Below the pieces are notes generated by a model, which was not told the origin of the DNA, did not search any database, and saw only the letters and a list, made by a program, of their open reading frames with translations. The translations under genes and the position numbers were made by a program. DNA of 64,000 nucleotides. Source: Eledone cirrhosa. Its lineage: Eukaryota. The stretch spans positions 4,774,001 through 4,838,000 of the forward strand of contig OZ024764.1 in NCBI GenBank assembly GCA_964016885.1, in the 5' to 3' direction. Positions 37,966 to 61,695 of the stretch are shown here, piece after piece (position 1 is the first letter of the stretch; each line of letters opens with the position of its first letter).

Positions 37966-38005
<40 letters not shown>

Positions 38006-38167
38006 GTGTGTGTATATATGTGATATACAGACATGTATATAATGTGAAATGAAACAGGAAGGCCTATATATATCTATATAGGTGTGTGGTGTGTGTATAT
38101 ATGTGTGTGTGTGTGTATATATATGTGACATACAGACATGTATATAATGTGAAATGAAACTGGAAGG

Positions 38168-38203
<36 letters not shown>

Positions 38204-38463
38204 GTGTGTGTATATATGTGTGGTGTGTGTATATATGTGTGTGTGTGTATATATGTGATATACAGACATGTATATAATGTGAAATGAAACTGGAAGGCCT
38301 ATATATATATATATATGTGTGTGGTGTGTGTATATATGTGATATACAGACATGTATATAATGTGAAATGAAACTGGAAGGCCTATATATATATATATATG
38401 TGTGTGGTGTGTATATATGTGATATACAGACATGTATATAATGTGAAATGAAACTGGAAGGCC

Positions 38464-38495
<32 letters not shown>

Positions 38496-38569
38496 GTGTG
38501 TGTATATATGTGATATACAGACATGTATATAATGTGAAATGAAACTGGAAGGCCTATATATATATATAT

Positions 38570-41241
38570 GAGACATCGTTATGCTAGCAGGAGACTTCAA
38601 TGGTCATGTTGGACAGCTCCAGGATGGTTACACTGGGGTACATGGTGGGCATGGTTACGGTTCAAGAAATGAAGAAGGAGTGAGACTTCTTGAATTTTGT
38701 GATGCAAGTACATTGACTATTTGCAACACAAACTTCCAGAAACCTGCCAATCACCTAATAACCTACAAATCTGGTGAGCACATAAGCCAGATTGACTTCC
38801 TGCTAGTTAGGCAGCGGGACAGGCAGATAGTGTCTAATACCAAGGCATACCCTGGGGAAGAATGTACCCCACAGCATAGGTTAGTTGTTAGTGATATCTC
38901 AGTAAGCAAGAGATGGAATGAGCCATATAGGAAGGTGTGGAGAAGAAAGGTCTGGAAGCTAAAAGACCTTTCACTAAAATTCAAATTTAGGAAAGCCCTT
39001 CAAGATGTATATGACGAAAAAGAAGACGATTTAGAGACGTATGACATAGATAATAACTGGAAGTTCTTACGTGACAACTTGCTGAAGGCTACTGATGAAA
39101 CTTGTGGCTGGAGCAGAGCCCCAACCAGACAGAGAGTGACCTGGTGGTGGAACAGCAGTGTAGATAAGGCTATTAGAGACAAAAGACTAGCATGGAAGGC
39201 TTGGAATAAGGGTGGGAGTAGGGAAGAATATACAGCCACTAAGAGAGAAGCTAGACGTCAGGTGTACTTAGCACGCAGGGAGGCAGAGAGTAGGAGGTTT
39301 GCCAATGTTCTGCGACGGGAAGATCAGAGGCGTGCGGTGTTCCACATTGCAAGGCAGTGTGTCAATGCAAATCAGGATGTTGTTGGTGATAAATGTGTCC
39401 GGGATGATGCCGGTGTACTTAGTGTCACGAATGACCAGAAAAAGGAGGCCTGGAAATGCCATTATGAGAGACTGATGAATGTGGAGAACGAATGGGAGAG
39501 AGAGAAATTACCCTTGGTAGATCCGACAGAGGGACCAGCTATTGAGATTGACGAATATAGGGTCCAAGAGGCGATTAGGGAAATGAAAAATGGTAAGGCG
39601 GCCGGACCATCGGGAATAGTTGCTGAGATGCTGAAGGCATCAGGGGACGTAGGCACTAAACTGGTTGCACGCATAATCAATCAGGCTATATATGGTGGTG
39701 TCATACCCAAAGACTGGTGCAGCAGTATTCTCATAAATTGCTACAAAGGTAAAGGGGATGCTTTGGAGAGGAGCAATTATAGGGGTATAAAACTGATAGA
39801 TCAGGTTATGAAAGTGGCAGAAAGGATTTTAGCACAACTAATTAGAGAAAGGGTCAAACTAGATGAGATGCAGTTTGGTTTTGTGCCTGGGAAGAGTACA
39901 ACAGATGCCCTCTTCTTGGTGAGACAAATGCAAGAGAGGTTCTTAGAGAAGAATAAGCCACTATACTTGGCCTTTGTTGACCTAGAGAAGGCCTTTGATA
40001 GGGTACCCCGATCTGTCATCTGGTGGTCCCTAAGGAAGCTGGGTGTTGAGGAATGGCTTGTAAGGACAGTGCAAACTTTGTACAGAGGTACTCTCAGTAA
40101 AGTCAGGGTAGGAATGGAGTTTAGTGAGGAATTCCAGATACAAGTAGGAGTACATCAGGGTTCGGTCCTCAGCCCGCTCTTGTTCATTATAGTCCTCCAA
40201 GCCATAACAGAGGAGTTTAAGACTGGCTGTCCATGGGAACTTCTCTATGCTGACGATCTGGCTCTTATGGCAGAATCAGTAGAGGAGCTAGAGAATAAAT
40301 TCCGGCTATGGAAACAGCAGTTGGAAGCAAGAGGACTGAGAGTAAATCTAGCTAAGACAAAAGTGTTGATGAGTAGAAAAGAGGACAAAACCCTGATTCC
40401 GTCAGGGAAATGGCCATGTTCGATATGCAGAAAAGGAACTGGCATAAATTCTATAAAATGCACACAATGTAGGTCCTGGGTACACAAGAGATGTAGCGGG
40501 ATAGCAGGCAAACTAACAGGTAGGGAGAAATATGTATGCAGTAGATGCACAGGGAAATTAGACAGTAGAAGTCGCACTGATAGACACATTTTTCAAATGC
40601 GAGAGGGCGCTATAGAAGTGGTGGATAGCTTCCGGTACCTAGGAGATCAGATTAGCATGGGAGGAGGGTGTTCCGAGGCCATAGTATCTAGAATAAGGAC
40701 GGGTTGGAAGAAGTTTAGGGAGCTGCTTCCTCTGTTGACGAAGAAGGGTTTCTCCCTGCGTATGAAAGGCCGGTTGTATGATGCCTGTGTGAGGAGCGCG
40801 ATGCTGCATGGTAGTGAGACATGGGCAGCTACCGCAGAAGATATGCGACGGCTGGAGAGAAATGAGGCAAGCATGCTCCGTTGGATGTGCAGTGTAAATG
40901 TGCGTGAACGACCCAGCATAAATGTGTTGAGAGAGAAACTGTGTCTGAGAGGGATAGAATGTAGTGTACGGGAGAGGAGACTGAGGTGGTATGGACATGT
41001 GATGCGCATGGAGGATGACCGATGGGTGAAGAAGTGCCAGGAAATGCCAGTTGAAGGAAGACGAAGTAGAGGTAGACCACGAAAAACATGGGCGGAGGTG
41101 GTGAGAACAGACCTCAGATCATTGAAGCTCACGGTGGAGATGACGAGGGACCGTGACGAGTGGAGAGATGCTGTGCTGAATAAGACCCGTCCCACCCTTG
41201 CAAGCAGGGAAAAGCGGACGTAAAATGATGATGATGATGAT
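38570..41241 (+). mobile_element. RTE family A LINE, 5'-truncated within the endonuclease, young
   Basis: Near-identical to the reverse complement of 57135-59813; (GAT)n tail; flanked by (TA)n on both sides. Confidence 0.97.
38581..41223 (+). CDS. RTE-A polyprotein (partial AP endonuclease, RT, PHD-type finger), 880 aa, N-truncated
   Basis: GDFNGH, QHRLV, YRGIKL, QFGF, FVDLEKAFD, GVHQGSVLSP, LLYADD, C4HC3 motif, FRYLG, RLRWYGHV, GRPRKTW. Confidence 0.93.
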   Translation: MLAGDFNGHVGQLQDGYTGVHGGHGYGSRNEEGVRLLEFCDASTLTICNTNFQKPANHLITYKSGEHISQIDFLLVRQRDRQIVSNTKAYPGEECTPQHRLVVSDISVSKRWNEPYRKVWRRKVWKLKDLSLKFKFRKALQDVYDEKEDDLETYDIDNNWKFLRDNLLKATDETCGWSRAPTRQRVTWWWNSSVDKAIRDKRLAWKAWNKGGSREEYTATKREARRQVYLARREAESRRFANVLRREDQRRAVFHIARQCVNANQDVVGDKCVRDDAGVLSVTNDQKKEAWKCHYERLMNVENEWEREKLPLVDPTEGPAIEIDEYRVQEAIREMKNGKAAGPSGIVAEMLKASGDVGTKLVARIINQAIYGGVIPKDWCSSILINCYKGKGDALERSNYRGIKLIDQVMKVAERILAQLIRERVKLDEMQFGFVPGKSTTDALFLVRQMQERFLEKNKPLYLAFVDLEKAFDRVPRSVIWWSLRKLGVEEWLVRTVQTLYRGTLSKVRVGMEFSEEFQIQVGVHQGSVLSPLLFIIVLQAITEEFKTGCPWELLYADDLALMAESVEELENKFRLWKQQLEARGLRVNLAKTKVLMSRKEDKTLIPSGKWPCSICRKGTGINSIKCTQCRSWVHKRCSGIAGKLTGREKYVCSRCTGKLDSRSRTDRHIFQMREGAIEVVDSFRYLGDQISMGGGCSEAIVSRIRTGWKKFRELLPLLTKKGFSLRMKGRLYDACVRSAMLHGSETWAATAEDMRRLERNEASMLRWMCSVNVRERPSINVLREKLCLRGIECSVRERRLRWYGHVMRMEDDRWVKKCQEMPVEGRRSRGRPRKTWAEVVRTDLRSLKLTVEMTRDRDEWRDAVLNKTRPTLASREKRT

Positions 41242-41703
41242 ATATATATATATGTGTGTGGTGTGTGTATATATGTGATATACAGACATGTATATAATGT
41301 GAAATGAAACTGGAAGGCCTATATATATATATATATATATGTGTGTGGTGTGTGTATATATGTGATATACAGACATGTATATAATGTGAAATGAAACTGG
41401 AAGGCCTATATATATATATATATGTGTGTGGTGTGTGTATATATGTGTGTGTGTGTGTGTATATATGTGATATACAGACATGTATATAATGTGAAATGAA
41501 ACTGGAAGGCCTATATATATATATATATATATGTGTGTGTGGTGTGTGTATATATGTGATATACAGACATGTATATAATGTGAAATGAAACAGGAAGGCC
41601 TATATATATCTATATAGGTGTGTGGTGTGTGTATATATGTGTGTGTGTGTGTATATATATGTGACATACAGACATGTATATAATGTGAAATGAAACTGGA
41701 AGG

Positions 41704-41739
<36 letters not shown>

Positions 41740-42088
41740 GTGTGTGTATATATGTGTGGTGTGTGTATATATGTGTGTGTGTGTATATATGTGATATACA
41801 GACATGTATATAATGTGAAATGAAACTGGAAGGCCTATATATATATATATATGTGTGTGTGGTGTGTGTATATATGTGATATACAGACATGTATATAATG
41901 TGAAATGAAACTGGAAGGCCTATATATATATATATATGTGTGTGTGGTGTGTGTATATATGTGATATACAGACATGTATATAATGTGAAATGAAACTGGA
42001 AGGCCTATATATATATATATATGTGTGTGGTGTGTGTATATATGTGATATACAGACATGTATAAAATGTGAAATGAAACTGGAAGGCC

Positions 42089-42120
<32 letters not shown>

Positions 42121-42454
42121 GTGTGTGTATATATGTAATATACAGACATGTATATAGTGTGAAATGAAACAGGAAGGCCTATATATATATATATATATAT
42201 GTGTGGTATGTGTATATATGTGTGTGTGTGTGTGTGTATATGTGATATACAGACATGTATATAATGTGAAATGAAACTGGAAGGCCTATATATATATATA
42301 TATGTGTGTGTGGTGTGTATATATGTGATATACAGACATGTATATAATGTGAAATGAAACTGGAAGGCCTATATATATATATATATATATGTGTGTGGTG
42401 TGTGTATATATGTGATATACAGACATGTATATAATGTGAAATGAAACTGGAAGG

Positions 42455-42492
<38 letters not shown>

Positions 42493-42719
42493 GTGTGTGT
42501 ATATATGTGATATACAGACATGTATATAATGTGAAATGAAACTGGAAGGCCTATATATATATATATATGTGTGTTTGGTGTGTATATATGTGATATACAG
42601 ACATGTATATAATGTGAAATGAAACTGGAAGGCCTATATATATATATATATATATGTGTGTGGTGTGTGTATATATGTGATATACAGACATGTATATAAT
42701 GTGAAATGAAACTGGAAGG

Positions 42720-42757
<38 letters not shown>

Positions 42758-42984
42758 GTGTGTGTATATATGTGATATACAGACATGTATATAATGTGAA
42801 ATGAAACTGGAAGGCCTATATATATATATATATGTGTGTGTGGTGTGTATATATGTGATATACAGACATGTATATAATGTGAAATGAAACTGGAAGGCCT
42901 ATATATATATATATATATATGTGTGTGGTGTGTGTATATATGTGATATACAGACATGTATATAATGTGAAATGAAACTGGAAGG

Positions 42985-43032
<48 letters not shown>

Positions 43033-43089
43033 GTGTGTGTATATATGTGATATACAGACATGTATATAATGTGAAATGAAACTGGAAGG

Positions 43090-43127
<38 letters not shown>

Positions 43128-43287
43128 GTGTGTGTATATATGTGATATACAGACATGTATATAATGTGAAATGAAACTGGAAGGCCTATATATATATATA
43201 TATGTGTGGTGTGTGTATATATGTGTGTGTGTGTGTGTATATATGTGATATACACACATGTATATAATGTGAAATGAAACTGGAAGG

Positions 43288-43327
<40 letters not shown>

Positions 43328-43384
43328 GTGTGTGTATATATGTGATATACAGACATGTATATAATGTGAAATGAAACAGGAAGG

Positions 43385-43428
<44 letters not shown>

Positions 43429-43603
43429 GTGTGTGTATATATGTGTGGTGTGTGTATATATGTGTGTGTGTGTATATATGTGATATACAGACATGTATAT
43501 AATGTGAAATGAAACTGGAAGGCCTATATATATATATATATGTGTGGTGTGTGTATATATGTGATATACAGACATGTATATAATGTGAAATGAAACTGGA
43601 AGG

Positions 43604-43641
<38 letters not shown>

Positions 43642-43733
43642 GTGTGTGTATATATGTGATATACAGACATGTATATAATGTGAAATGAAACTGCAAGGCC
43701 TATATATATATATATATATATGTGTGGTGTGTG

Positions 43734-43782
<49 letters not shown>

Positions 43783-43906
43783 GATATACAGACATGTATA
43801 TAATGTGAAATGAAACTGGAAGGCCTATATATATATATATGTGTGTGCTGTGTGTATATATGTGATATACAGACATGTATATAACGTGAAATGAAACTGG
43901 AAGGCC

Positions 43907-43938
<32 letters not shown>

Positions 43939-44026
43939 GTGTGTGTATATATGTGATATACAGACATGTATATAATGTGAAATGAAACTGGAAGGCCTAT
44001 ATATATATATATATGTGTGGTGTGTG

Positions 44027-44075
<49 letters not shown>

Positions 44076-44197
44076 GATATACAGACATGTATATAATGTG
44101 AAATGAAACTGGAAGGCCTATATATATATATATGTGTGTGCTGTGTGTATATATGTGATATACAGACATGTATATAATGTGAAATGAAACTGGAAGG

Positions 44198-44235
<38 letters not shown>

Positions 44236-44410
44236 GTGTGTGTATATATGTGATATACAGACATGTATATAATGTGAAATGAAACTGGAAGTCCTATATA
44301 TATATATATATATATATGTGTGTGGTGTGTGTATATGTGATATACAGACATGTATATAATGTGAAATGAAACTGGAAGGCCTATATATATATATATATGT
44401 GTGGTGTGTG

Positions 44411-44448
<38 letters not shown>

Positions 44449-44569
44449 ATATACAGACATGTATATAATGTGAAATGAAACTGGAAGGCCTATATATATA
44501 TATATGTGTGTGGTGTGTGTATATATGTGATATACAGACATGTATATAATGTGAAATGAAACAGGAAGG

Positions 44570-44607
<38 letters not shown>

Positions 44608-44693
44608 GTGTGTGTATATGTGATATACAGACATGTATATAATGTGAAATGAAACTGGAAGGCCTATATATATATATATATGTGTGGTGTGTG

Positions 44694-44731
<38 letters not shown>

Positions 44732-44771
44732 ATATACAGACATGTATATAATGTGAAATGAAACTGGAAGG

Positions 44772-44815
<44 letters not shown>

Positions 44816-44955
44816 GTGTGTGTATATATGTGATATACAGACATGTATATAATGTGAAATGAAACTGGAAGGCCTATATATATATATATATGTGTGTGGT
44901 GTGTATATATGTGATATACAGACATGTATATAATGTGAAATGAAACTGGAAGGCC

Positions 44956-44987
<32 letters not shown>

Positions 44988-45046
44988 GTGTGTGTATATA
45001 TGTGATATACAGACATGTATATAATGTGAAATGAAACTGGAAGGCC

Positions 45047-45080
<34 letters not shown>

Positions 45081-45470
45081 GTGTGTGTATATATGTGATA
45101 TACAGACATGTATATAATGTGAAATGAAACAGGAAGGCCTATATATATCTATATAGGTGTGTGGTGTGTGTATATATGTGTGGTGTGTGTATATATGTGT
45201 GTGTGTGTATATATGTGTGTGTGTGTATATATGTGATATACAGACATGTATATAATGTGAAATGAAACTGGAAGGCCTATATATATATATATATATGTGT
45301 GTGGTGTGTGTATATATGTGTGGTGTGTGTGTGTGTGTATATATGTGATATACAGACATGTATATAATGTGAAATGAAACTGGAAGGCCTATATATATAT
45401 ATATGTGTGTGGTGTGTGTATATATGTGATATACAGACATGTATATAATGTGAAATGAAACTGGAAGGCC

Positions 45471-45504
<34 letters not shown>

Positions 45505-45654
45505 GTGTGTGTATATATGTAATATACAGACATGTATATAGTGTGAAATGAAACAGGAAGGCCTATATATATATATATATGTGTGGTGTGTGTATATATG
45601 TGTATATATGTGATATACAGACATGTATATAATGTGAAATGAAACTGGAAGGCC

Positions 45655-45688
<34 letters not shown>

Positions 45689-45995
45689 GTGTGTGTATAT
45701 ATGTGTGGTGTGTGTATATATGTGTGTGTGTGTATATATGTGATATACAGACATGTATATAATGTGAAATGAAACTGGAAGGCCTATATATATATATATA
45801 TATGTGTGTGGTGTGTGTATATATGTGTGGTGTGTGTATATATGTGTGTGTGTGTGTGTATATATGTGATATACAGACATATATATAATGTGAAATGAAA
45901 CTGGAAGGCCTATATATATATATATATATATGTGTGTGGTGTGTGTATATATGTGATATACAGACATGTATATAATGTGAAATGAAACTGGAAGG

Positions 45996-46045
<50 letters not shown>

Positions 46046-46293
46046 GTGTGTATATATGTAATATACAGACATGTATATAGTGTGAAATGAAACAGGAAGG
46101 CCTATATATATATATATATATATGTGTGTGGTGTGTGTATATATGTGATATACAGACATGTATATAATGTGAAATGAAACAGGAAGGCCTATATATATAT
46201 ATATATGTGTGGTGTGTGTATATATATATGTGTGTGGTGTGTGTATATATGTGATATACAGACATGTATATAATGTGAAATGAAACTGGAAGG

Positions 46294-46380
<87 letters not shown>

Positions 46381-46508
46381 GATATACAGACATGTATATA
46401 ATGTGAAATGAAACTGGAAGGCCTATATATATATATATATATATGTGTGTGGTGTGTGTATATATGTGATATACAGACATGTATATAATGTGAAATGAAA
46501 CTGGAAGG

Positions 46509-46554
<46 letters not shown>

Positions 46555-46611
46555 GTGTGTGTATATATGTGATATACAGACATGTATATAATGTGAAATG
46601 AAACTGGAAGG

Positions 46612-46651
<40 letters not shown>

Positions 46652-46811
46652 GTGTGTGTATATATGTGATATACAGACATGTATATAATGTGAAATGAAA
46701 CTGGAAGGCCTATATATATATATATATGTGTGGTGTGTGTATATATGTGTGTGTGTGTGTGTATATATGTGATATACACACATGTATATAATGTGAAATG
46801 AAACTGGAAGG

Positions 46812-46851
<40 letters not shown>

Positions 46852-46908
46852 GTGTGTGTATATATGTGATATACAGACATGTATATAATGTGAAATGAAA
46901 CAGGAAGG

Positions 46909-46950
<42 letters not shown>

Positions 46951-47125
46951 GTGTGTGTATATATGTGTGGTGTGTGTATATATGTGTGTGTGTGTATATA
47001 TGTGATATACAGACATGTATATAATGTGAAATGAAACTGGAAGGCCTATATATATATATATATGTGTGGTGTGTGTATATATGTGATATACAGACATGTA
47101 TATAATGTGAAATGAAACTGGAAGG

Positions 47126-47165
<40 letters not shown>

Positions 47166-47257
47166 GTGTGTGTATATATGTGATATACAGACATGTATAT
47201 AATGTGAAATGAAACTGCAAGGCCTATATATATATATATATATATGTGTGGTGTGTG

Positions 47258-47306
<49 letters not shown>

Positions 47307-47430
47307 GATATACAGACATGTATATAATGTGAAATGAAACTGGAAGGCCTATATATATATATATGTGTGTGCTGTGTGTATATATGTGATATACAGACAT
47401 GTATATAATGTGAAATGAAACTGGAAGGCC

Positions 47431-47462
<32 letters not shown>

Positions 47463-47550
47463 GTGTGTGTATATATGTGATATACAGACATGTATATAAT
47501 GTGAAATGAAACTGGAAGGCCTATATATATATATATATGTGTGGTGTGTG

Positions 47551-47599
<49 letters not shown>

Positions 47600-47721
47600 G
47601 ATATACAGACATGTATATAATGTGAAATGAAACTGGAAGGCCTATATATATATATATGTGTGTGCTGTGTGTATATATGTGATATACAGACATGTATATA
47701 ATGTGAAATGAAACTGGAAGG

Positions 47722-47759
<38 letters not shown>

Positions 47760-47934
47760 GTGTGTGTATATATGTGATATACAGACATGTATATAATGTG
47801 AAATGAAACTGGAAGTCCTATATATATATATATATATATATGTGTGTGGTGTGTGTATATGTGATATACAGACATGTATATAATGTGAAATGAAACTGGA
47901 AGGCCTATATATATATATATATGTGTGGTGTGTG

Positions 47935-47972
<38 letters not shown>

Positions 47973-48093
47973 ATATACAGACATGTATATAATGTGAAAT
48001 GAAACTGGAAGGCCTATATATATATATATGTGTGTGGTGTGTGTATATATGTGATATACAGACATGTATATAATGTGAAATGAAACAGGAAGG

Positions 48094-48131
<38 letters not shown>

Positions 48132-48217
48132 GTGTGTGTATATGTGATATACAGACATGTATATAATGTGAAATGAAACTGGAAGGCCTATATATATATA
48201 TATATGTGTGGTGTGTG

Positions 48218-48255
<38 letters not shown>

Positions 48256-48295
48256 ATATACAGACATGTATATAATGTGAAATGAAACTGGAAGG

Positions 48296-48337
<42 letters not shown>

Positions 48338-48477
48338 GTGTGTGTATATATGTGATATACAGACATGTATATAATGTGAAATGAAACTGGAAGGCCTATA
48401 TATATATATATATGTGTGTGGTGTGTATATATGTGATATACAGACATGTATATAATGTGAAATGAAACTGGAAGGCC

Positions 48478-48509
<32 letters not shown>

Positions 48510-48568
48510 GTGTGTGTATATATGTGATATACAGACATGTATATAATGTGAAATGAAACTGGAAGGCC

Positions 48569-48602
<34 letters not shown>

Positions 48603-48992
48603 GTGTGTGTATATATGTGATATACAGACATGTATATAATGTGAAATGAAACAGGAAGGCCTATATATATCTATATAGGTGTGTGGTGTGTGTATATATG
48701 TGTGGTGTGTGTATATATGTGTGTGTGTGTATATATGTGTGTGTGTGTATATATGTGATATACAGACATGTATATAATGTGAAATGAAACTGGAAGGCCT
48801 ATATATATATATATATATGTGTGTGGTGTGTGTATATATGTGTGGTGTGTGTGTGTGTGTATATATGTGATATACAGACATGTATATAATGTGAAATGAA
48901 ACTGGAAGGCCTATATATATATATATGTGTGTGGTGTGTGTATATATGTGATATACAGACATGTATATAATGTGAAATGAAACTGGAAGGCC

Positions 48993-49026
<34 letters not shown>

Positions 49027-49176
49027 GTGTGTGTATATATGTAATATACAGACATGTATATAGTGTGAAATGAAACAGGAAGGCCTATATATATATATAT
49101 ATGTGTGGTGTGTGTATATATGTGTATATATGTGATATACAGACATGTATATAATGTGAAATGAAACTGGAAGGCC

Positions 49177-49210
<34 letters not shown>

Positions 49211-49519
49211 GTGTGTGTATATATGTGTGGTGTGTGTATATATGTGTGTGTGTGTATATATGTGATATACAGACATGTATATAATGTGAAATGAAACTGG
49301 AAGGCCTATATATATATATATATATGTGTGTGGTGTGTGTATATATGTGTGGTGTGTGTATATATGTGTGTGTGTGTGTGTATATATGTGATATACAGAC
49401 ATGTATATAATGTGAAATGAAACTGGAAGGCCTATATATATATATATATATATATGTGTGTGGTGTGTGTATATATGTGATATACAGACATGTATATAAT
49501 GTGAAATGAAACTGGAAGG

Positions 49520-49571
<52 letters not shown>

Positions 49572-49819
49572 GTGTGTATATATGTAATATACAGACATGT
49601 ATATAGTGTGAAATGAAACAGGAAGGCCTATATATATATATATATATATGTGTGTGGTGTGTGTATATATGTGATATACAGACATGTATATAATGTGAAA
49701 TGAAACAGGAAGGCCTATATATATATATATATGTGTGGTGTGTGTATATATATATGTGTGTGCTGTGTGTATATATGTGATATACAGACATGTATATAAT
49801 GTGAAATGAAACTGGAAGG

Positions 49820-49906
<87 letters not shown>

Positions 49907-49949
49907 GATATACAGACATGTATATAATGTGAAATGAAACTGGAAGGCC

Positions 49950-49983
<34 letters not shown>

Positions 49984-50055
49984 GTGTGTGTATATATGTG
50001 ATATACAGACATGTATATAATGTGAAATGAAACTGGAAGGCCTATATATATATAT

Positions 50056-53000
50056 TTATATGATGCTCGCTACCTCCCAAATAACCGACAGTGACTATAT
50101 AGTTATTGCAGGCGACCTAAATGGTCACGTTGGACAACATTGTGACGGCTATGACGGAATCCATAGAGGCTATGGGTTCGGTACTAGAAATGAGGAAGGC
50201 TCCAGAATCCTGGAATTCTGCGACGCAAATAACTTAACTATCTGTAACACTAACTTCAAAAAACGAGACAATCACTTGATCACCTATAGATCGGGGGAAC
50301 ACACAAGCCAGGTAGATTATATCCTTACCAGAAGACGTGACAGAGTGTCTGTTGTTAACACTAAATCCCACCCCCATGAAGAATTCACCTCCCAACATAG
50401 ACTGATAATTAGCGACCTCATAGTCAGGACGAGACGTACTAGACAGCGGAAGAGGACTATCCTCAGGAGAAAAATATGGAAGCTAAAGGACCCCATAGCC
50501 AGAAATAAATTCCAAAGCATATTACTTGACGCTTTCGACAGTAAGGAAGAGCAATTAGAGTCGTATAATATAGAGGAACAGTGGGAATTCCTGAGAGCAA
50601 ACCTGCTGACGGCGGCAGACGAAGTCTGTGGCTGGAGCAGGCCTGTAGGTAGGAGGAGAGTAACATGGTGGTGGAACAGTAAGGTGGAGGAGTCAATTAA
50701 GGCCAAAAAGCAGGCTTGGAAAGTATGGCGGGATGGGGGAAGTAGAGAAGACTATCAAGTGGCCAGGAGGGAAGCTAGGAGACAAGTGTACTTCGCAAGA
50801 AGGGAAGCAGAGGAAAGAAAGTTCAAGCATGTTCTACAACGTGAGGACCAAAAACGTGAGGTGTTCAGGATTGCCAGGCAATGTGTCAAGGAAAACCGTG
50901 ATATTGTCGGGGAGAAGTGTGTACTTAACGATGATGGCATACTTGCCATCACCGACGCTGATAAGAAGGTAGCTTGGAAGTGTCACTACGAAAGGCTTCT
51001 AAATGAGGAGAACAAATGGGAGAAAGACAGTCTCCCCCAGATCGATCCAATAGAGGGACCAGCAGTGTTAGTTGAAGGTAGTATAATAAGTAAGGCAATC
51101 AAAGATATGAAGACGGGTAAGGCGGCTGGGCCTTCGGAAATAGTTGCTGAGATGCTGAAGGCATCTGGTTCGGTGGGACACACCATGGTCACCCGGATAG
51201 TTAACCAAGTCGTACAGAATGGGGTTGTTCCGAAGGAATGGCGTAGCAGCATCATCGTTAACTGCTATAAGGGAAAAGGAGATGCCCTAGATAGGAGTAA
51301 CTATAGAGGCATTAAATTAATCGACCAGGTCATGAAGGTCACGGAAAAAGTAATAGCGCAACTAATCAGAGAGAGAATTGATCTAGATGAAATGCAGTTC
51401 GGGTTTGTGTCAGGCAAAAGTACCACAGACGCTCTTTTCATTGTACGACAACTACAGGAGAAGTACCTAGCTAAAAGTAAACCCCTATACTTAGCTTTCG
51501 TCGACTTGGAGAAAGCCTTCGACAGAGTCCCCCGTTCCATTATCTGGTGGTCTCTTAGAAAACTAGGTGTTGACGAATGGCTTGTGAGAGCTATACAAGC
51601 CATGTATAAAGAAACAGTCAGTAAGGTTAGAATTAACAACGAATATAGTGAAGAGTTTAGCGTAAAAGTTGGTGTCCATCAGGGCTCTGTTCTTAGCCCC
51701 CTACTATTTATTATTGCCCTTCAGGCTATAACAGAGGAGTTCAAGACCGGCTGCCCATGGGAACTCCTATACGCAGATGATCTAACGCTCATAGCTGAAT
51801 CAATGACCGAACTAGAGAAGAAATTCCAAACGTGGAAGCACGGCCTAGAATCAAAAGGCCTTAAAATTAACCTGGCTAAGACTAAAGTTCTAGTTTGTAG
51901 GAAAGAAAATAAGGCGGTGGTCCCATCGGGGAAATGGCCATGCTCAGTGTGTAGGAAAGGCGTAGGTAGAAACTCCATTTTATGTCCCAAATGCAAAGTA
52001 TGGGTGCATAAAAGATGTAGTGGGATCACAGGTAAGCTAACTAAGAAGATAGATTTTACATGTGGCCGGTGCTCTGGTGCAATAAGTAGCAGCAAGTGCC
52101 CACAAAATACTAGCTCCTTCAACTGCGCAGAGGGTTCTATAGAAATAGTGGACAGCTTCCGTTATCTGGGTGACAAAATCAGCAGTGGGGGAGGGTGCTC
52201 TGAAAGTACAGTAGCTAGAGTCAGAACTGGATGGAAAAAGTTCAGAGAGCTTATACCAGTATTAGCCGCTAGAGGGTTCTCCCTAAAAATGAAAGGCAGG
52301 TTATACGATGCCTGCATACGAACAGCAATGCTGCATGGCAGTGAGACCTGGGCATTGTGTGCAGAGGATATACGCAGACTAGAGAGGAACGAAGCTTGCA
52401 TGCTCCGCTGGATGTGCAATAGTAATATACGTGAACGGCAAAGCATAAACGAACTAAGGAAAAAATTAGAAATAAGAGGGATCAGATGTTGTTTACTCGA
52501 GAGAAGGCTACGTTGGTACGGTCATGTGATGCGCATGAAAGACGACAGCTGTATAACAAAGTGCAGGGCAATAAAGATAGACGGTAACCACGGAGTAGGC
52601 AGACCCAGAAAAACATGGGACGAGCTGATAAATTCCGACCTCACACGCTTACACCTCTCCAAGACAATGTCACTGGACCGAGACCTTTGGCGGTACTCAG
52701 TAATAGAGAAGACCCGCCTTACCTAAATACAAAGTAAAAACCTACTACAGTCAGTAGGCATCTCTATCAAAACACACCCCCGTCCCACCACCCTCCACCC
52801 CACCCACACCGCCCCTTTCAATGTAAAGTTATGTTGGTCCCACAACATCCAGGCCGAAACAAATGAGATCGTGTAGGTGTCACGACAAAAATCACACAGT
52901 CCACGCTGTAAATGTGGCCGTGTAGGCAACACGGTAAAAACCTCCCAGCCCCACACTGTAAATGTGGTTGGTGTTAGGAAGGGCATCCAGCTGTAGAAAA

Positions 53001-53236
53001 CCCGCCAGACAGTCCACGCTGTAATGTGGCCGTGTAGGCAACACGGTAAAAACCTCCCAGCCCCACACTGTAGATGTGGTTGGTGTTAGGAAGGGCATCC
53101 AACTGTAGAAAACCCGCCAGACAGTCCTATGCGAGCAAGACAACCACTCTTGCCTCAAGTGGGAAAACCCCCGTCCAAACCCATGCAAGCGTGGAACACG
53201 GACGCTAAACCTGATGATGATGATGATGATGATGAT
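50056..53236 (+). mobile_element. RTE family B LINE, 5'-truncated, with ~500-bp structured 3' UTR
   Basis: Uninterrupted ORF to 52726, 3' UTR matching 34440-34813, (GAT)n tail, inserted in satellite (TA)n. Confidence 0.97.
50060..52726 (+). CDS. RTE-B polyprotein (partial AP endonuclease, RT, PHD-type finger), N-truncated
   Basis: GDLNGH, FVDLEKAFD, GVHQGSVLSP, LLYADD, CSVC..CPKC..H..C..CGRC, FRYLG; the ORF-track start at 50027 lies in satellite. Confidence 0.93.
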   Translation: MMLATSQITDSDYIVIAGDLNGHVGQHCDGYDGIHRGYGFGTRNEEGSRILEFCDANNLTICNTNFKKRDNHLITYRSGEHTSQVDYILTRRRDRVSVVNTKSHPHEEFTSQHRLIISDLIVRTRRTRQRKRTILRRKIWKLKDPIARNKFQSILLDAFDSKEEQLESYNIEEQWEFLRANLLTAADEVCGWSRPVGRRRVTWWWNSKVEESIKAKKQAWKVWRDGGSREDYQVARREARRQVYFARREAEERKFKHVLQREDQKREVFRIARQCVKENRDIVGEKCVLNDDGILAITDADKKVAWKCHYERLLNEENKWEKDSLPQIDPIEGPAVLVEGSIISKAIKDMKTGKAAGPSEIVAEMLKASGSVGHTMVTRIVNQVVQNGVVPKEWRSSIIVNCYKGKGDALDRSNYRGIKLIDQVMKVTEKVIAQLIRERIDLDEMQFGFVSGKSTTDALFIVRQLQEKYLAKSKPLYLAFVDLEKAFDRVPRSIIWWSLRKLGVDEWLVRAIQAMYKETVSKVRINNEYSEEFSVKVGVHQGSVLSPLLFIIALQAITEEFKTGCPWELLYADDLTLIAESMTELEKKFQTWKHGLESKGLKINLAKTKVLVCRKENKAVVPSGKWPCSVCRKGVGRNSILCPKCKVWVHKRCSGITGKLTKKIDFTCGRCSGAISSSKCPQNTSSFNCAEGSIEIVDSFRYLGDKISSGGGCSESTVARVRTGWKKFRELIPVLAARGFSLKMKGRLYDACIRTAMLHGSETWALCAEDIRRLERNEACMLRWMCNSNIRERQSINELRKKLEIRGIRCCLLERRLRWYGHVMRMKDDSCITKCRAIKIDGNHGVGRPRKTWDELINSDLTRLHLSKTMSLDRDLWRYSVIEKTRLT

Positions 53237-53250
53237 ATGTGTGGTGTGTG

Positions 53251-53288
<38 letters not shown>

Positions 53289-53328
53289 ATATACAGACAT
53301 GTATATAATGTGAAATGAAACTGGAAGG

Positions 53329-53376
<48 letters not shown>

Positions 53377-53717
53377 GTGCGTGTATATATTTGATATACA
53401 GACATGTATATAATGTGAAATGAAACTGGAAGGCCTATATATATATATATGTGTGTGGTGTGTGTATATATTTGATATACAGACATGTATATAATGTGAA
53501 ATGAAACTGGAAGGCCTATATATATATATATATATATATGTGTGTGGTGTGTGTATATATGTGATATACAGACATGTATATAATGTGAAATGAAACAGGA
53601 AGGCCTATATATATATATATGTGTGTGTGGTGTGTGTATATATGTGATATACAGACATGTATATAGTGTGAAATGAAACAGGAAGGCCTATATATATATA
53701 TGTGTGTGTGGTGCGTG

Positions 53718-53762
<45 letters not shown>

Positions 53763-53902
53763 GATATACAGACATGTATATAATGTGAAATGAAACAGGA
53801 AGGCCTATATATATATATATGTGTGTGGTGTGTGTATATATGTGTGTGTGTGTATATGTGATATACAGACATGTATATAATGTGAAATGAAACTGGAAGG
53901 CC

Positions 53903-53936
<34 letters not shown>

Positions 53937-53993
53937 GTGTGTGTATATATGTGATATACAGACATGTATATAATGTGAGATGAAACTGGAAGG

Positions 53994-54029
<36 letters not shown>

Positions 54030-54345
54030 TGTGGTGTGTGTATATATGTGATATACAGACATGTATATAATGTGAAATGAAACTGGAAGGCCTATATATA
54101 TATATATATATATATGTGTGTGGTGTGTGTATATATGTGATATACAGACATGTATATAATGTGAAATGAAACTGGAAGGCCTATATATATATATATATGT
54201 GTGTGTGGTGTGTATATATGTGATATACAGACATGTATATAATGTGAAATGAAACTGGAAGGCCTATATATATATATATATGTGTGTGGTGTGTGTATAT
54301 ATGTGATATACAGACATGTATATAATGTGAAATGAAACTGGAAGG

Positions 54346-54389
<44 letters not shown>

Positions 54390-54446
54390 GTGTGTGTATA
54401 TATGTGATATACAGACATGTATATAATGTGAAATGAAACTGGAAGG

Positions 54447-54488
<42 letters not shown>

Positions 54489-54648
54489 GTGTGTGTATAT
54501 ATGTGATATACAGACATGTATATAATGTGAAATGAAACTGGAAGGCCTATATATATATATATATGTGTGGTGTGTGTATATATGTGTGTGTGTGTGTGTA
54601 TATATGTGATATACAGACATGTATATAATGTGAAATGAAACTGGAAGG

Positions 54649-54690
<42 letters not shown>

Positions 54691-54749
54691 GTGTGTGTAT
54701 ATATGTGATATACAGACATGTATATAATGTGAAATGAAACTGGAAGGCC

Positions 54750-54783
<34 letters not shown>

Positions 54784-55111
54784 GTGTGTGTATATATGTA
54801 ATATACAGACATGTATATAGTGTGAAATGAAACAGGAAGGCCTATATATATATATATATGTGTGTGGTGTGTGTATATATGTGATATACAGACATGTATA
54901 TAATATGAAATGAAACAGGAAGGCCTATATATATATATATATATATGTGTGGTGTGTGTATATATGTGTGTGTGTGTGTGTGTATATGTGATATACAGAC
55001 ATGTATATAATGTGAAATGAAACTGGAAGGCCTATATATATATATATATGTGTGTGGTGTGTATATATGTGATATACAGACATGTATATAATGTGAAATG
55101 AAACTGGAAGG

Positions 55112-55151
<40 letters not shown>

Positions 55152-55208
55152 GTGTGTGTATATATGTGATATACAGACATGTATATAATGTGAAATGAAA
55201 CTGGAAGT

Positions 55209-55246
<38 letters not shown>

Positions 55247-55485
55247 GTGTGTGTATATATGTGATATACAGACATGTATATAATGTGAAATGAAACTGGA
55301 AGGCCTATATATATATATATGTGTGTGTGGTGTGTGTATATATGTGATATACAGACATGTATATAATGTGAAATGAAACAGGAAGGCCTATATATATATA
55401 TATATGTGTGTGGTGTGTGTATATATGTGTGTGTGTATATATGTGATATACAGACATGTATATAATGTGAAATGAAACTGGAAGT

Positions 55486-55523
<38 letters not shown>

Positions 55524-55642
55524 GTGTGTGTATATATGTGATATACAGACATGTATATAATGTGAAATGAAACTGGAAGGCCTATATATATATATATATA
55601 TATATGTGTGGTGTGTGTATATATGTGTGGTGTGTGTATATA

Positions 55643-55673
<31 letters not shown>

Positions 55674-55853
55674 GATATACAGACATGTATATAATGTGAA
55701 ATGAAACTGGAAGGCCTATATATATATATATATGTGTGTGGTGTGTGTATATATGTGATATACAGACATGTATATAATGTGAAATGAAACTGGAAGGCCT
55801 ATATATATATATATATGTGTGGTGTGTGTATATATGTGTGGTGTGTGTATATA

Positions 55854-55884
<31 letters not shown>

Positions 55885-56097
55885 GATATACAGACATGTA
55901 TATAATGTGAAATGAAACTGGAAGGCCTATATATATATATATATGTGTGTGGTGTGTGTATATATGTGATATACAGACATGTATATAATGTGAAATGAAA
56001 CTGGAAGGCCTATATATATATATATATATATGTGTGTGTGGTGTGTGTATATATGTGATATACAGACATGTATATAATGTGAAATGAAACTGGAAGG

Positions 56098-56135
<38 letters not shown>

Positions 56136-56438
56136 GTGTGTGTATATATGTGATATACAGACATGTATATAATGTGAAATGAAACTGGAAGGCCTATATA
56201 TATATATATATATGTGTGTGGTGTGTGTATATATGTGTGGTGTGTGTATATATGTGTGTGTGTGTGTGTATATATGTGATATACAGACATGTATATAATG
56301 TGAAATGAAACTGGAAGGCCTATATATATATATATATATATATGTGTGTGGTGTGTGTATATATGTGATATACAGACATGTATATAATGTGAAATGAAAC
56401 TGGAAGGCCTATATATATATATATATGTGTGGTGTGTG

Positions 56439-56477
<39 letters not shown>

Positions 56478-56601
56478 GATATACAGACATGTATATAATG
56501 TGAAATGAAACTGGAAGGCCTATATATATATATATGTGTGTGGTGTGTGTATATATGTGATATACAGACATGTATATAATGTGAAATGAAACTGGAAGGC
56601 C

Positions 56602-56635
<34 letters not shown>

Positions 56636-56692
56636 GTGTGTGTATATATGTAATATACAGACATGTATATAATGTGAAATGAAACTGGAAGG

Positions 56693-56734
<42 letters not shown>

Positions 56735-56896
56735 GTGTGTGTATATATGTGTGTGTGTGTGTGTGTATATGTGATATACAGACATGTATATAATGTGAAA
56801 TGAAACTGGAAGGCCTATATATATATATATATGTGTGGTGTGTGTATATATGTGATATACAGACATGTATATAATGTGAAATGAAACTGGAAGGCC

Positions 56897-56930
<34 letters not shown>

Positions 56931-56987
56931 GTGTGTGTATATATGTAATATACAGACATGCATATAATGTGAAATGAAACTGGAAGG

Positions 56988-57027
<40 letters not shown>

Positions 57028-57134
57028 GTGTGTGTATATATGTGTGGTGTGTGTATATATGTGTGTGTGTGTGTGTATATATGTGATATACAGACATGTA
57101 TATAATGTGAAATGAAACTGGAAGGCCTATATAT

Positions 57135-60100
57135 CATCATCATCATCATCATCATCATTTTACGTCCGCTTTTCCCTGCTTGCAAGGGTGGGACGGGTCT
57201 TATTCAGCACAGCATCTCTCCACTCGTCACGGTCCCTCGTCATCTCCACCGTGAGCTTCAATGATCTGAGGTCTGTTCTCACCACCTCCACCCATGTTTT
57301 TCGTGGTCTACCTCTACTACGTCTTCCTTCAACTGGCATTTCCTGGCACTTCTTCACCCATCGGTCATCCTCCATGCGCATCACATGTCCATACCACCTC
57401 AGTCTCCTCTCCCGTACACTACATTCTATCCCTCTCAGACACAGTTTCTCTCTCAACACATTTATGCTGGGTCGTTCACGCACATTTACACTGCACATCC
57501 AACGGAGCATGCTTGCCTCATTTCTCTCCAGCCGTCGCATATCTTCTGCGGTAGCTGCCCATGTCTCACTACCATGCAGCATCGCGCTCCTCACACAGGC
57601 ATCATACAACCGGCCTTTCGTACGCAGGGAGAAACCCTTCTTCGTCAACAGAGGAAGCAGCTCCCTAAACTTCTTCCAACCCGTCCTTATTCTAGATACT
57701 ATGGCCTCGGAACACCCTCCTCCCATGCTAATCTGATCTCCTAGGTACCGGAAGCTATCCACCACTTCTATAGCGCCCTCTCGCATTTGAAAAATGTGTC
57801 TATCAGTGCGACTTCTACTGTCTAATTTCCCTGTACATCTACTGCATACATATTTCTCCCTACCTGTTAGTTTGCCTGCTATCCCGCTACATCTCTTGTG
57901 TACCCAGGACCTACATTGTGTGCATTTTATAGAATTTATGCCAGTTCCTTTTCTGCATATCGAACATGGCCATTTCCCTGACGGAATCAGGGTTTTGTCC
58001 TCTTTTCTACTCATCAACACTTTTGTCTTAGCTAGATTTACTCTCAGTCCTCTTGCTTCCAACTGCTGTTTCCATAGCCGGAATTTATTCTCTAGCTCCT
58101 CTACTGATTCTGCCATAAGAGCCAGATCGTCAGCATAGAGAAGTTCCCATGGACAGCCAGTCTTAAACTCCTCTGTTATGGCTTGGAGGACTATAATGAA
58201 CAAGAGCGGGCTGAGGACCGAACCCTGATGTACTCCTACTTGTATCTGGAATTCCTCACTAAACTCCATTCCTACCCTGACTTTACTGAGAGTACCTCTG
58301 TACAAAGTTTGCACTGTCCTTACAAGCCATTCCTCAACACCCAGCTTCCTTAGGGACCACCAGATGACAGATCGGGGTACCCTATCAAAGGCCTTCTCTA
58401 GGTCAACAAAGGCCAAGTATAGTGGCTTATTCTTCTCTAAGAACCTCTCTTGCATTTGTCTCACCAAGAAGAGGGCATCTGTTGTACTCTTCCCAGGCAC
58501 AAAACCAAACTGCATCTCATCTAGTTTGACCCTTTCTCTAATTAGTTGTGCTAAAATCCTTTCTGCCACTTTCATAACCTGATCTATCAGTTTTATACCC
58601 CTATAATTGCTCCTCTCCAAAGCATCCCCTTTACCTTTGTAGCAATTTATGAGAATACTGCTGCACCAGTCTTTGGGTATGACACCACCATATATAGCCT
58701 GATTGATTATGCGTGCAACCAGTTTAGTGCCTACGACCCCTGATGCCATTCAGCATCTCAGCAACTATTCCCGATGGTCCGGCCGCCTTACCATTTTTCA
58801 TTTCCCTAATCGCCTCTTGGACCCTATATTCGTCAATCTCAATAGCTGGTCCCTCTGTCGGATCTACCAAGGGTAATTTCTCTCTCTCCCATTCGTTCTC
58901 CACATTCATCAGTCTCTCATAATGGCATTTCCAGGCCTCCTTTTTCTGGTCATTCGTGACACTAAGTACACCGGCATCATCCCGGACACATTTATCACCA
59001 ACAACATCCTGATTTGCATTGACACACTGCCTTGCAATGTGGAACACCGCACGCCTCTGATCTTCCCGTCGCAGAACATTGGCAAACCTCCTACTCTCTG
59101 CCTCCCTGTGTGCTAAGTACACCTGACGTCTAGCTTCTCTCTTAGTGGCTGTATATTCTTCCCTACTCCCACCCTTATTCCAAGCCTTCCATGCTAGTCT
59201 TTTGTCTCTAATAGCCTTATCTACACTGCTGTTCCACCACCAGGTCACTCTCTGTCTGGTTGGGGCTCTGCTCCAGCCACAAGTTTCATCAGTAGCCTTC
59301 AGCAAGTTGTCACGTAAGAACTTCCAGTTATTATCTATGTCATACGTCTCTAAATCGTCTTCTTTTTCGTCATATACATCTTGAAGGGCTTTCCTAAATT
59401 TGAATTTTAGTGAAAGGTCTTTTAGCTTCCAGACCTTTCTTCTCCACACCTTCCTATATGGCTCATTCCATCTCTTGCTTACTGAGATATCACTAACAAC
59501 TAACCTATGCTGTGGGGTACATTCTTCCCCAGGGTATGCCTTGGTATTAGACACTATCTGCCTGTCCCGCTGCCTAACTAGCAGGAAGTCAATCTGGCTT
59601 ATGTGCTCACCAGATTTGTAGGTTATTAGGTGATTGGCAGGTTTCTGGAAGTTTGTGTTGCAAATAGTCAATGTACTTGCATCACAAAATTCAAGAAGTC
59701 TCACTCCTTCTTCATTTCTTGAACCGTAACCATGCCCACCATGTACCCCAGTGTAACCATCCTGGAGCTGTCCAACATGACCATTGAAGTCTCCTGCTAG
59801 CATAACGATGTCTCCGTCCTCTGTCATTGTGGTTGTTTGCAAAAGTTGCTCATAAAAGCAGTCTTTCTCATCTTTGCCTAGGCCTGCTTGGGGAGCATAG
59901 ACCGAGATGATTGTCAGTAGTCTCCTACCTACAACTAATCTAAGCTTAATTATTCGATTACTAACTCGAACTACCTCTATTGTCTTATTGATCCATTTCT
60001 CAGCCAGGAAAATGCCTACTCCCCCTAACCCATCATCCTTACCTACCCAGAATAGCTTATAGCTAAGACGCTTGCCTACGACTAGTCTCGCAGAGGCACC

Positions 60101-61695
60101 TCTCCATCTCACCTCTTGCACGCAGCACACATCCACCTGCCTTCTCTCCAGCATCTCCGCTATTTCAGCAGATCTACCTCTGAGAGTGCCAACATTAAGT
60201 GTTGCAACTCTGAGATGCGACGTCTTCATATTTTTTTTTTTCTATGCTGTTTTGTTGCTGTGCTGATAAGCTTTTTGGCATTGATACACTGGTTGGATGC
60301 CCTTCCTAACACCAGCGCCACTTTACAGCATGGACTGGGTGCTTTTATTTGTGCCACCAGCACTAGAGAGGATGTCTTACTAGACTCAAGGGCCCTCTCT
60401 ACCCCTCCATTTTACAGCATGGTCATTTAAAAAAAAAAAAAAAAAAAAACTTATTGACACGACTCACACACTAATACTCATGCATACAAACCACAACCAC
60501 ACATACCAACACTCATTCATGCATACAATCACACACACAACTCACAAACACATATATATATATACATATATTACCGACAGTTCTGATACAAAATCAAAAT
60601 CAAAGTCAAAATCGTCAAAATCACTATCATGTCAACTGTTGACCTTTCCCAGTCCAGTTCGGCTTGTATATAATAACAATAACAATAATAATTGTTTGTT
60701 TACGCTGGTGGATGGTGTCAGTGTGGTGGTGGTGGATGGTATCAGCGTGGTGGTGGTGGATGGTCAGTGATGGTGGTGACAGTTGTTGGTGCTGTAGTTG
60801 TTACTGTTGTTGTTGTCCTTCATTTCACTGCTGCTGTTGCTGCAGACAATGGTGTTGATGCTGTTATTGCTGTCGCATATATACAAATACATACACACAC
60901 ATTCAACACAGACGATGGTGTTGTTGCTGTTGTTGTTGTTGTTGGTGTTGCTGCTGTTGTTGTTGTAGTTGTTGCTGTGTTGAAATCTGGTCGCATCCAC
61001 TGAGATATACATATACACACACATACACATATGTATATACACACACATACACATATGTATATACACATACATACATCAAAAGATAGTCAGCAGTATGTCA
61101 ACAGGGGACAGGACAGCGACCTTAGAGTAATGTGGTGATGGTGGGGAGCGAGTGTAGGCGTTATTGTTATTGTGGTGACGGGGGGGTCAGTGAGATGTTA
61201 CAAGTTCATAGATCACTTCTCTCTTTTCCTCTCTCTTCAAAATTTTGAATTTATGGCCTTTTGCAATGGCGGCCAAGTATATATAATATATATGAAGCAA
61301 AGAAAAGAAAATTTTCACTGATATGAAAGATTTCCTGGTAGAAGTTCAGGTGTATTCAGTGATTGGTATCCAGTTTCGGGGTATCCAATTAGAAAATCCA
61401 ACGAATTTTGAGAGGGGTCCACGCAAGCATATATATAGATATATATATGTATATATGCAAAATGCAAGCAGAAATAACAACACATATACTAATGAACATA
61501 CATTAAACACAGAGGGACTGTAAATGATGATAGCAATATCTAGATATAAATATATAAATGTACATATCTCTATTGGTCTCATAAATTTTAAATTTTCTCT
61601 TTCCTCTTGTGTGTGTGTAGCAACACGTGGTTGTGTGTTGCTGCTGACTCTAGCAGAGCCCAAGAAAACACGTCTTGCCCTAACAGCTGCTGCTC
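57135..61695 (-). mobile_element. Full-length RTE family A insertion (4561 bp) including 1.27 kb of extra 5' sequence
   Basis: TSD CCTATATAT at 57126-57134 and 61696-61704; (CAT)n tail at 57135; ORF 60229-57160; leader module 60270-60428. Confidence 0.9.
57160..60229 (-). pseudogene. Complete RTE-A ORF (AP endonuclease, RT, PHD-type finger) broken by a 1-bp insertion at 58748
   Basis: LRVATLNVGTL, CCVQEVRW, SVYAPQ, GDFNGH through YADD; CTGAATGGCATCA versus CTGAAGGCATCA in the 38.6-kb copy. Confidence 0.93.

Follow-up and report, generated by a model that had tools for sequence, protein, structure and literature searches.

Introduction

Small H-type pseudoknots are familiar from viral RNAs. 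In these, as in the tandem 3' pseudoknots of tobamoviruses, a stem 1 of 4-6 bp and a stem 2 of 3-5 bp are connected by an A-rich linker, which in small viral knots lies in the minor groove of stem 1, and neighbouring knots abut. Plant-virus UTRs also carry cap-independent translation enhancers, located 5' or 3'.

The closest described systems outside viruses are found in RTE elements and SINEs (statements on published work here refer to the accessible portions of each paper). Parts of RTE 5' UTRs are repeatedly retained by SINEs, and Kojima (2018) suggested regulator binding for them with no structure put forward (PMC5786205). The function of the SINE central domains is termed unknown in PMC4824008. 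The structures proposed in PMC4758252 and PMC6007223 are hairpins, and concern other parts of the elements. A preprint describes switching of the 5' region in plant RTEs (bioRxiv 2022.11.04.512097), and RTE-1 templates make use of both their cognate UTRs (PMC13708176). A pseudoknot proposal for the RTE 5'-UTR, SINE or CORE domains was not found in the accessible literature, with subscription papers and patents outside the scope, and the accessible text of PMC13295347 held nothing on the topic.

Here we describe a cassette that recurs in RTE-type elements and in a SINE of Eledone cirrhosa. The cassette is real and homologous among its carriers. Sequence comparison gives moderate support to selected pseudoknots in two of its modules, A and B, and weaker support to a third, C, within the data from this genome.

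Genomic setting and architecture of the cassette

The window, i.e. the whole stretch analysed, comprises 64,000 nt of contig OZ024764.1 (4774001-4838000) from a genome of 3.0 Gb. It contains three RTE-type ORFs with endonuclease, RT and PHD domains (Pfam EN, RVT_1, PHD), one of family 1 (50021-52726) and two of family 2 (38572-41223 and 57160-60241), the proteins of the two families being 65% identical. The features of RTE-clade LINEs are present, namely a single ORF with AP endonuclease and RT, and a (GAT)n tail; by this architecture the ORFs are putatively assigned to the RTE clade. Among 30 loci, many have the family-1 3' UTR joined to DNA from the end of the ORF. The main features are as follows.

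50021-52726, plus strand: RTE-type ORF, family 1 (endonuclease, RT, PHD finger); 5'-truncated copy with the cassette in its 3' UTR
52831-52848, plus strand: degenerate upstream A-like hairpin, from sequence and variants in other copies; loop-tail partner not seen
52869-52897, plus strand: module A, an H-type pseudoknot by prediction; stem 1 of 5 bp, loop of 7 nt, A-rich linker, stem 2 of 3-4 bp
52897-52917, plus strand: module B, predicted H-type pseudoknot adjoining A; CAG/CTG stem, loop complementary to a GTGG tail
52918-52943, plus strand: module A', tandem paralogue of A; stem 1 of 6-7 bp, stem 2 register-shifted and 3 bp long at this site
52946-52967, plus strand: module B', tandem paralogue of B
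52973-53006, plus strand: module C, core; bulged stem, GGCA-containing loop, A-rich linker, GCC; possible third pseudoknot
53010-53118, plus strand: 112-bp tandem duplication B-A'-B'-C; other copies carry one or more such repeats
53172-53237, plus strand: 3' terminal nested stem-loop and (GAT)n tail
34566-34738, plus strand: older family-1 cassette copy, site of a chance double change
36285-36780, plus strand: tandem expansion of the cassette, 140 bp x 3.6
35290-35670, minus strand: bipartite SINE with tRNA-like head, CORE-like domain, hairpin, A, B, C and RTE-type tail; B-type knot in CORE at 35531-35555, A at 35461-35490, B at 35441-35460, C at 35401-35434
60277-60425, minus strand: family 2 5' UTR with partial B, hairpin, A (60338-60363), B (60318-60337) and C (60277-60310, about 50 nt ahead of the ATG)
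57160-60241, minus strand: family 2 ORF, frameshift near 58730; short 3' tail without cassette, the same tail that terminates the SINE
5040-5990, plus strand: 79-bp satellite derived from the family-2 hairpin-A-B unit
16502-16531, plus strand: motif of a separate repeat family; 3-bp stem, 6-bp loop-tail complement

Several other features of the surroundings were observed. The RTE copies sit in a TA-rich satellite with an 83-87-bp period (37270-57130), and many copies genome-wide begin in (TA)n tracts. A long GT-rich extension with poly-T lies upstream of the 5' UTR in most of 30 family-2 loci (60430-60700 in the window), which suggests a composite transposing unit. An array of about 17 C2H2 zinc fingers occupies 29627-31101.

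The three modules follow distinct plans. Module A has a stem 1 of 4-7 bp, a GG-containing loop, an A-rich linker and a stem 2 of 3-5 bp. Module B adjoins A and consists of a CAG/CTG stem, a loop, TAAA and a tail complementary to the loop. Module C contains a bulged stem, a loop with GGCA, an A-rich linker and GCC. The initial annotation had noted a CAG..CAC.CTGTAA..G.GG segment behind the A-type motifs; it is indeed present, but instead of a mere spacer it is module B, which can form an H-type knot itself.

Relationship to described elements

The bipartite SINEs Mar-1, WALLSI2, SINE2-2_ACar and Bov-tA (PMC5786205) share with the Eledone SINE a CORE-like part, an RTE 5'-UTR part and an RTE 3' tail, and have a tRNA head where it has a tRNA-like one; by eye their RTE 5' part has the plan of module C (bulged stem, GGCA loop, linker, TGCC). 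Unlike in these published elements, an autonomous RTE here also holds the unit in its 3' UTR, in tandem copies. The CORE's 3' half in CORE-SINEs and MIR (PMC4824008) resembles module B in plan, with a CAG/CTG stem, a TAAA linker and a loop-complementary tail; module B differs in having a shorter loop, in being repeated and in lying outside the CORE proper, and the homology is judged by eye. The 3' stem-loops of LINEs and SINEs that are bound by RT, such as the plant RTE/Au hairpin (PMC6007223), are likewise small structured cis elements that LINE and SINE have in common and that display compensatory changes. However, the RTE/Au type is a terminal hairpin, whereas the cassette is a subterminal or 5' chain of predicted pseudoknots, with a separate terminal stem-loop. 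The 5' ribozymes, namely the Perere-3 twister (PMC8501958) and the HDV-like ribozyme of R2, parallel the pseudoknotted RNA found beside the same core in families outside this genome, while the modules of this genome have neither a catalytic core nor an Rfam match. In contrast to the viral and tobamovirus knots, the cassette has no slippery site, viral context or Rfam match.

A search of the window against Rfam (E up to 1) returned nothing relevant, the best 150 of 192 matches being simple-repeat, miRNA-type noise; the UTRs of both families likewise gave nothing relevant and matched no known family. HDV-like and twister folds for A+B were ruled out by eye and with Rfam.

We also compared published RTE and SINE parts by eye, from the accessible supplement of PMC5786205, with sequences chosen post hoc and no statistics applied. 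In nine RTE 5' parts (BOVA2, BovB, MAR1, SINE-1_Pmo, SINE2-2_ACar, EbuSINE2, AFROSINE3, SINE2-1_EC and RTE-14_Lch), the outer stem appears to be maintained with different letters (GGAG/CTCC, GAAG/CTTC, CTGGG/CCCAG), as does the loop-tail match (GGCA/TGCC, GGCC/GGCC, GCGC/GCGC). In the group of CoeSINE4, HaSE2_DP and RTE-4_PPo, the corresponding matches read GGCCA/TGGCC, GAGCA/TGCTC and TGCCA/TGGCA. By the same inspection, module B's plan recurs in the CORE 3' half, with CCCAT/ATGGG in MIR1_AMi and CTCAT/ATGAG in MAR1. We consider this lead the most valuable part of the work.

Descent and spread of the cassette

The strings given in the initial annotation were all found where it placed them (52869, 34566, 52918, 34.6 and 36.4 kb, 60338-60363, the 5-kb array, 35461-35488 and 16502). 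All A/B motifs descend from a single 48-bp unit (A+B) with core C behind it. Being homologous copies, they are not independent instances; the apparent modularity results from tandem duplication and descent of this one unit. A profile of the unit yielded 517 matches in 48 of 138 sources (137 random 10-kb genome stretches, 1.37 Mb in total, plus the window), and the C pattern occurred 99 times, spread over 46 of those 137 stretches. In family 1 the A+B-C cassette is found on the 3' side of the ORF and in family 2 on the 5' side, and the tRNA-CORE SINE carries it centrally; the 48-bp unit also builds satellites. Upstream of the family-1 ORF the cassette is absent in the 11 loci, of 24, that extend to the 5' region. 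This region is longer than 1 kb and unrelated to that of family 2, and some copies have an open frame well upstream of the endonuclease.

The SINE's middle portion is common to the family-2 5' UTR, with A-B-C in both. All 19 CORE-bearing copies in 1.37 Mb terminate in the tail of family 2, and the SINE copy in the window carries the other tail type. The head of the SINE contains A/B-box-like sequences by eye, and ARAGORN reported no tRNA genes. A near-perfect 11-bp hairpin lies between the CORE part and module A (35503-35531, minus strand).

The site at 16502-16529, initially listed as a weaker candidate, belongs to a different repeat family, with 786 pattern matches that are nearly invariant among the 100 listed and in which covariation was not seen. 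The knot-like motif forms the sharp start of this repeat (16490-16830), which terminates in (GAT)n.

Predicted pseudoknots and chance controls

Crossing stems with sterically usual linkers are possible in both A and B. A generic H-type scan, which returned 26 rows, recovered the sites at 52869, 52918, 53030, 34566, 34621, 36364, 36504 and 36643, as well as 35461-35488 (minus strand), 60338-60363 (minus strand), 5101, 5180 and 5876; the 16502 motif is absent from these rows. In all four family cassettes, two non-overlapping H-type knots with A-rich linkers are predicted on the sense strand and none on the reverse complement. Two sense-strand knots were equalled by 1, 6, 3 and 8 of 300 dinucleotide shuffles of the four cassettes.

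Other properties of the predicted folds are less favourable. As a nested fold, the entire 3' UTR does no better than its shuffles (z -0.11), with the A and A' stems kept and those of B lost. The pairing of A' depends on a shifted stem 2 of 3-4 bp. Stem 1 of B has 3 bp and never covaries, and it is broken in a loose-end consensus from one other organism (agreement 0.6).

Evidence for selected pairing in modules A and B

The change at 34566 that had been read as a compensatory G-C to A-U replacement is ordinary decay. Genome-wide, this type of pair is unchanged in 8,515 copies, changed singly in 131 and 117, and doubly in 4 (1.8 expected), two of the four probably being one duplicated locus.

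A clearer event affects stem 2 of B. In one sequence background, exact genome-wide matches number 1,991 for A-T (a class that takes in satellite units) and 46,802 for T-A, compared with 309 for T.T and 225 for A.A. The small mismatched classes indicate that no mismatched lineage has spread, although this is one event.

The amplified families were also compared through their majority sequences, which are related to each other and were classed by diagnostic bases. Both knots are kept better than under random divergence in five of six majority sequences (Fisher p 5e-7, or 3e-5 when changes are restricted to variable columns). Permutation of columns among seven majority sequences gave p 0.006 overall, 0.11 for A, which is not significant, and 0.004 for B, a value that one register-dependent column may inflate. 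One family majority, with a GGAG loop, loses knot A. Single copies appear neutral relative to the majority sequence of their family (mean p 0.15-0.52). In an alignment of 12 rows, 88% of the cells are paired, 6 of 19 pairs have double changes, and none of 500 shuffles matched the covariation score; these rows were selected ones, one is the chance copy at 34566, and the shuffle control ignores relatedness.

The initial annotation had expected significant covariation in the stems, and what was found in A and B is marginal. In a tree-aware test modelled on R-scape (124 distinct units from 46 loci, with 370 of the 517 matches parsed and at most 5 taken per locus), 1 of 19 predicted pairs was borderline, the A-T/T-A pair of B stem 2 (E 0.049), and a pair that is not predicted ranked first. 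One pair of A is found in a mismatched A.A state that has been amplified in three loci (91 units, in tandem arrays), and as paired T-A in 30 loci.

These comparisons point, at moderate strength, to amplified families that keep the complementarities while single copies and satellites decay. Modules A and B probably fold and are selected as RNA structure. The structure-conserved cis element initially proposed to be common to autonomous RTEs and the SINE thus stands at moderate strength, without the modular assembly.

Module C in this and other genomes

Of 55 distinct C copies, 39 have GCC at +15, and the preceding 4 nt vary. Covariation over shuffles was found neither for the hairpin register that had initially been described (GGTTGG..CCAGC) nor for the alternative knot register, in an ungapped alignment of 22 rows that scores tails at other spacings as unpaired. 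In one C sub-family, two linked changes make the bulged stem unbroken (36330-36345, 36469-36484 and 36609-36624, in three units of the tandem expansion, and locus L053).

Matches to the C core came from at least 120 metagenome loci, mostly animal-like repeats. Since the search pattern fixes the 3' strand of C, the covariation that these matches can display is limited. The core is conserved as sequence and its outer stem varies freely. Among the matches listed, a loop complement stands behind the A run in 2 of 88 and 1 of 13 members of the two largest outside families, and in 2 of 2 and 4 of 4 members of two small ones. In the largest family a twister-P1 ribozyme lies directly 5' of C in 6 of 20 tested sources (best match 50 bits, E 1e-8, all below the gathering score); Perere-3, an RTE, likewise carries a twister (PMC8501958). 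Six short repeats of this family, which makes up 88 of 121 among the matches listed, start with twister-P1 and continue with C.

A scan of genome contigs for the Bov-A-type core gave 40 loci, of which 16 appear to be ruminant SINE contamination of one family and 24 are chance bacterial matches, so that no cross-family covariation could be counted. The 16 are short, apparently contaminant contigs in bacterial genome records; they display the bulged stem and GGCA loop and, where the contig extends far enough, a GCC tail outside the search pattern. Two patterns gave no matches in viral contigs.

Proposed function and alternative explanations

Of the three functions initially offered for the element, the best fit is RT/RNP loading, since the cassette has been retained in 5', 3' or internal position and in a non-coding SINE. 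We tentatively propose, at somewhat below an even chance, that two or three abutting minimal H-type pseudoknots serve, together with the 3' tail, as a position-independent handle for loading the RTE protein. If A and B do fold and are selected, such loading would be their somewhat likelier task. The stacked knots would form a compact rod, with the A-rich linkers in the minor groove of stem 1 by analogy with small viral knots, and the RTE protein would bind this rod along with the terminal stem-loop. An RNA that captures the cassette would then be mobilised better, and selection would act at retrotransposition on master copies only. Family 1 may have taken up the bipartite unit as its 3' UTR, after which it could replace its 5' end. 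Binding of the RT protein would explain both the capture of the cassette by the SINE and this 5'-end swap.

Selection may instead concern a DNA or linear RNA motif, such as a promoter, a factor site or a recombination-prone repeat, with double changes arising by chance and fixed in master copies. We regard this as rather unlikely, though it has points in its favour: tree-aware covariation is not significant and one clean event supplies most of the signal, C is conserved as a sequence core with a freely variable outer stem, and regulator binding is what Kojima suggested (PMC5786205). It does not readily account for the loop-tail complement retained through different letters in several families, the strand asymmetry of the knots, or the compensations seen by eye in the accessible published RTE/SINE parts. 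Less probable still is that the knots form but act on ribosomes, as a cap-independent translation enhancer which SINEs keep in order to sit near new RT. The position of C ahead of the family-2 ATG, and directly behind a twister in outside families, would suit such a role, and in Schistosoma a cleaved twister supports RTE translation (PMC8501958); but the SINE is non-coding, the family-1 5' region has no cassette, and no ribozyme was found upstream of family 1 or family 2 here.

A function as nuclease block or general stabiliser protecting the template RNA seems improbable to us. Compact stacked knots are predicted, and the double pseudoknot of the ribozyme in R2 templates gives cap-like protection (PMC13708176), yet the position of the cassette varies. 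Moreover, the 5' ends of family-1 copies are scattered over the element's length and the first 68 nt contain the start of 19 of 29 SINE alignments, so there is no clear class of copies beginning at the knots, and no pile-up of 5' ends at the knots was seen in either set. That module B is what remains of a twister's 3' half, and the cassette a decayed 5' ribozyme, is very improbable. In outside contigs, twister-P1 does occupy the same place before C (6 of 20 sources), and the TCC-loop, TAAA and GG spacing are alike. However, the window modules have no match to the Rfam twister (RF03160) even at E 10, the loop is too short, the partner for the second knot is missing, and B is closer to the CORE 3' half within the same SINE.

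Implications

A wider form of the protein-loading proposal, which we hold more tentatively, is that the RTE 5'-UTR piece of Bov-A, Mar-1, AfroSINE and reptile SINEs, together with the MIR/CORE 3' half, may represent small H-type pseudoknots that serve as portable modules for loading LINE proteins; in Eledone they would have been duplicated, chained and moved from the 5' UTR to the 3' UTR. The conservation of SINE central domains and RTE 5'-UTR pieces across animal phyla is a stated open question in the accessible text of PMC4824008 and PMC5786205. The pseudoknot model names exact, testable base pairs in very-high-copy elements (Bov-A, MIR, RTE-1), and would bear on RTE-based gene-writing templates, whose UTRs, according to the accessible portion of PMC13708176, are tuned empirically.
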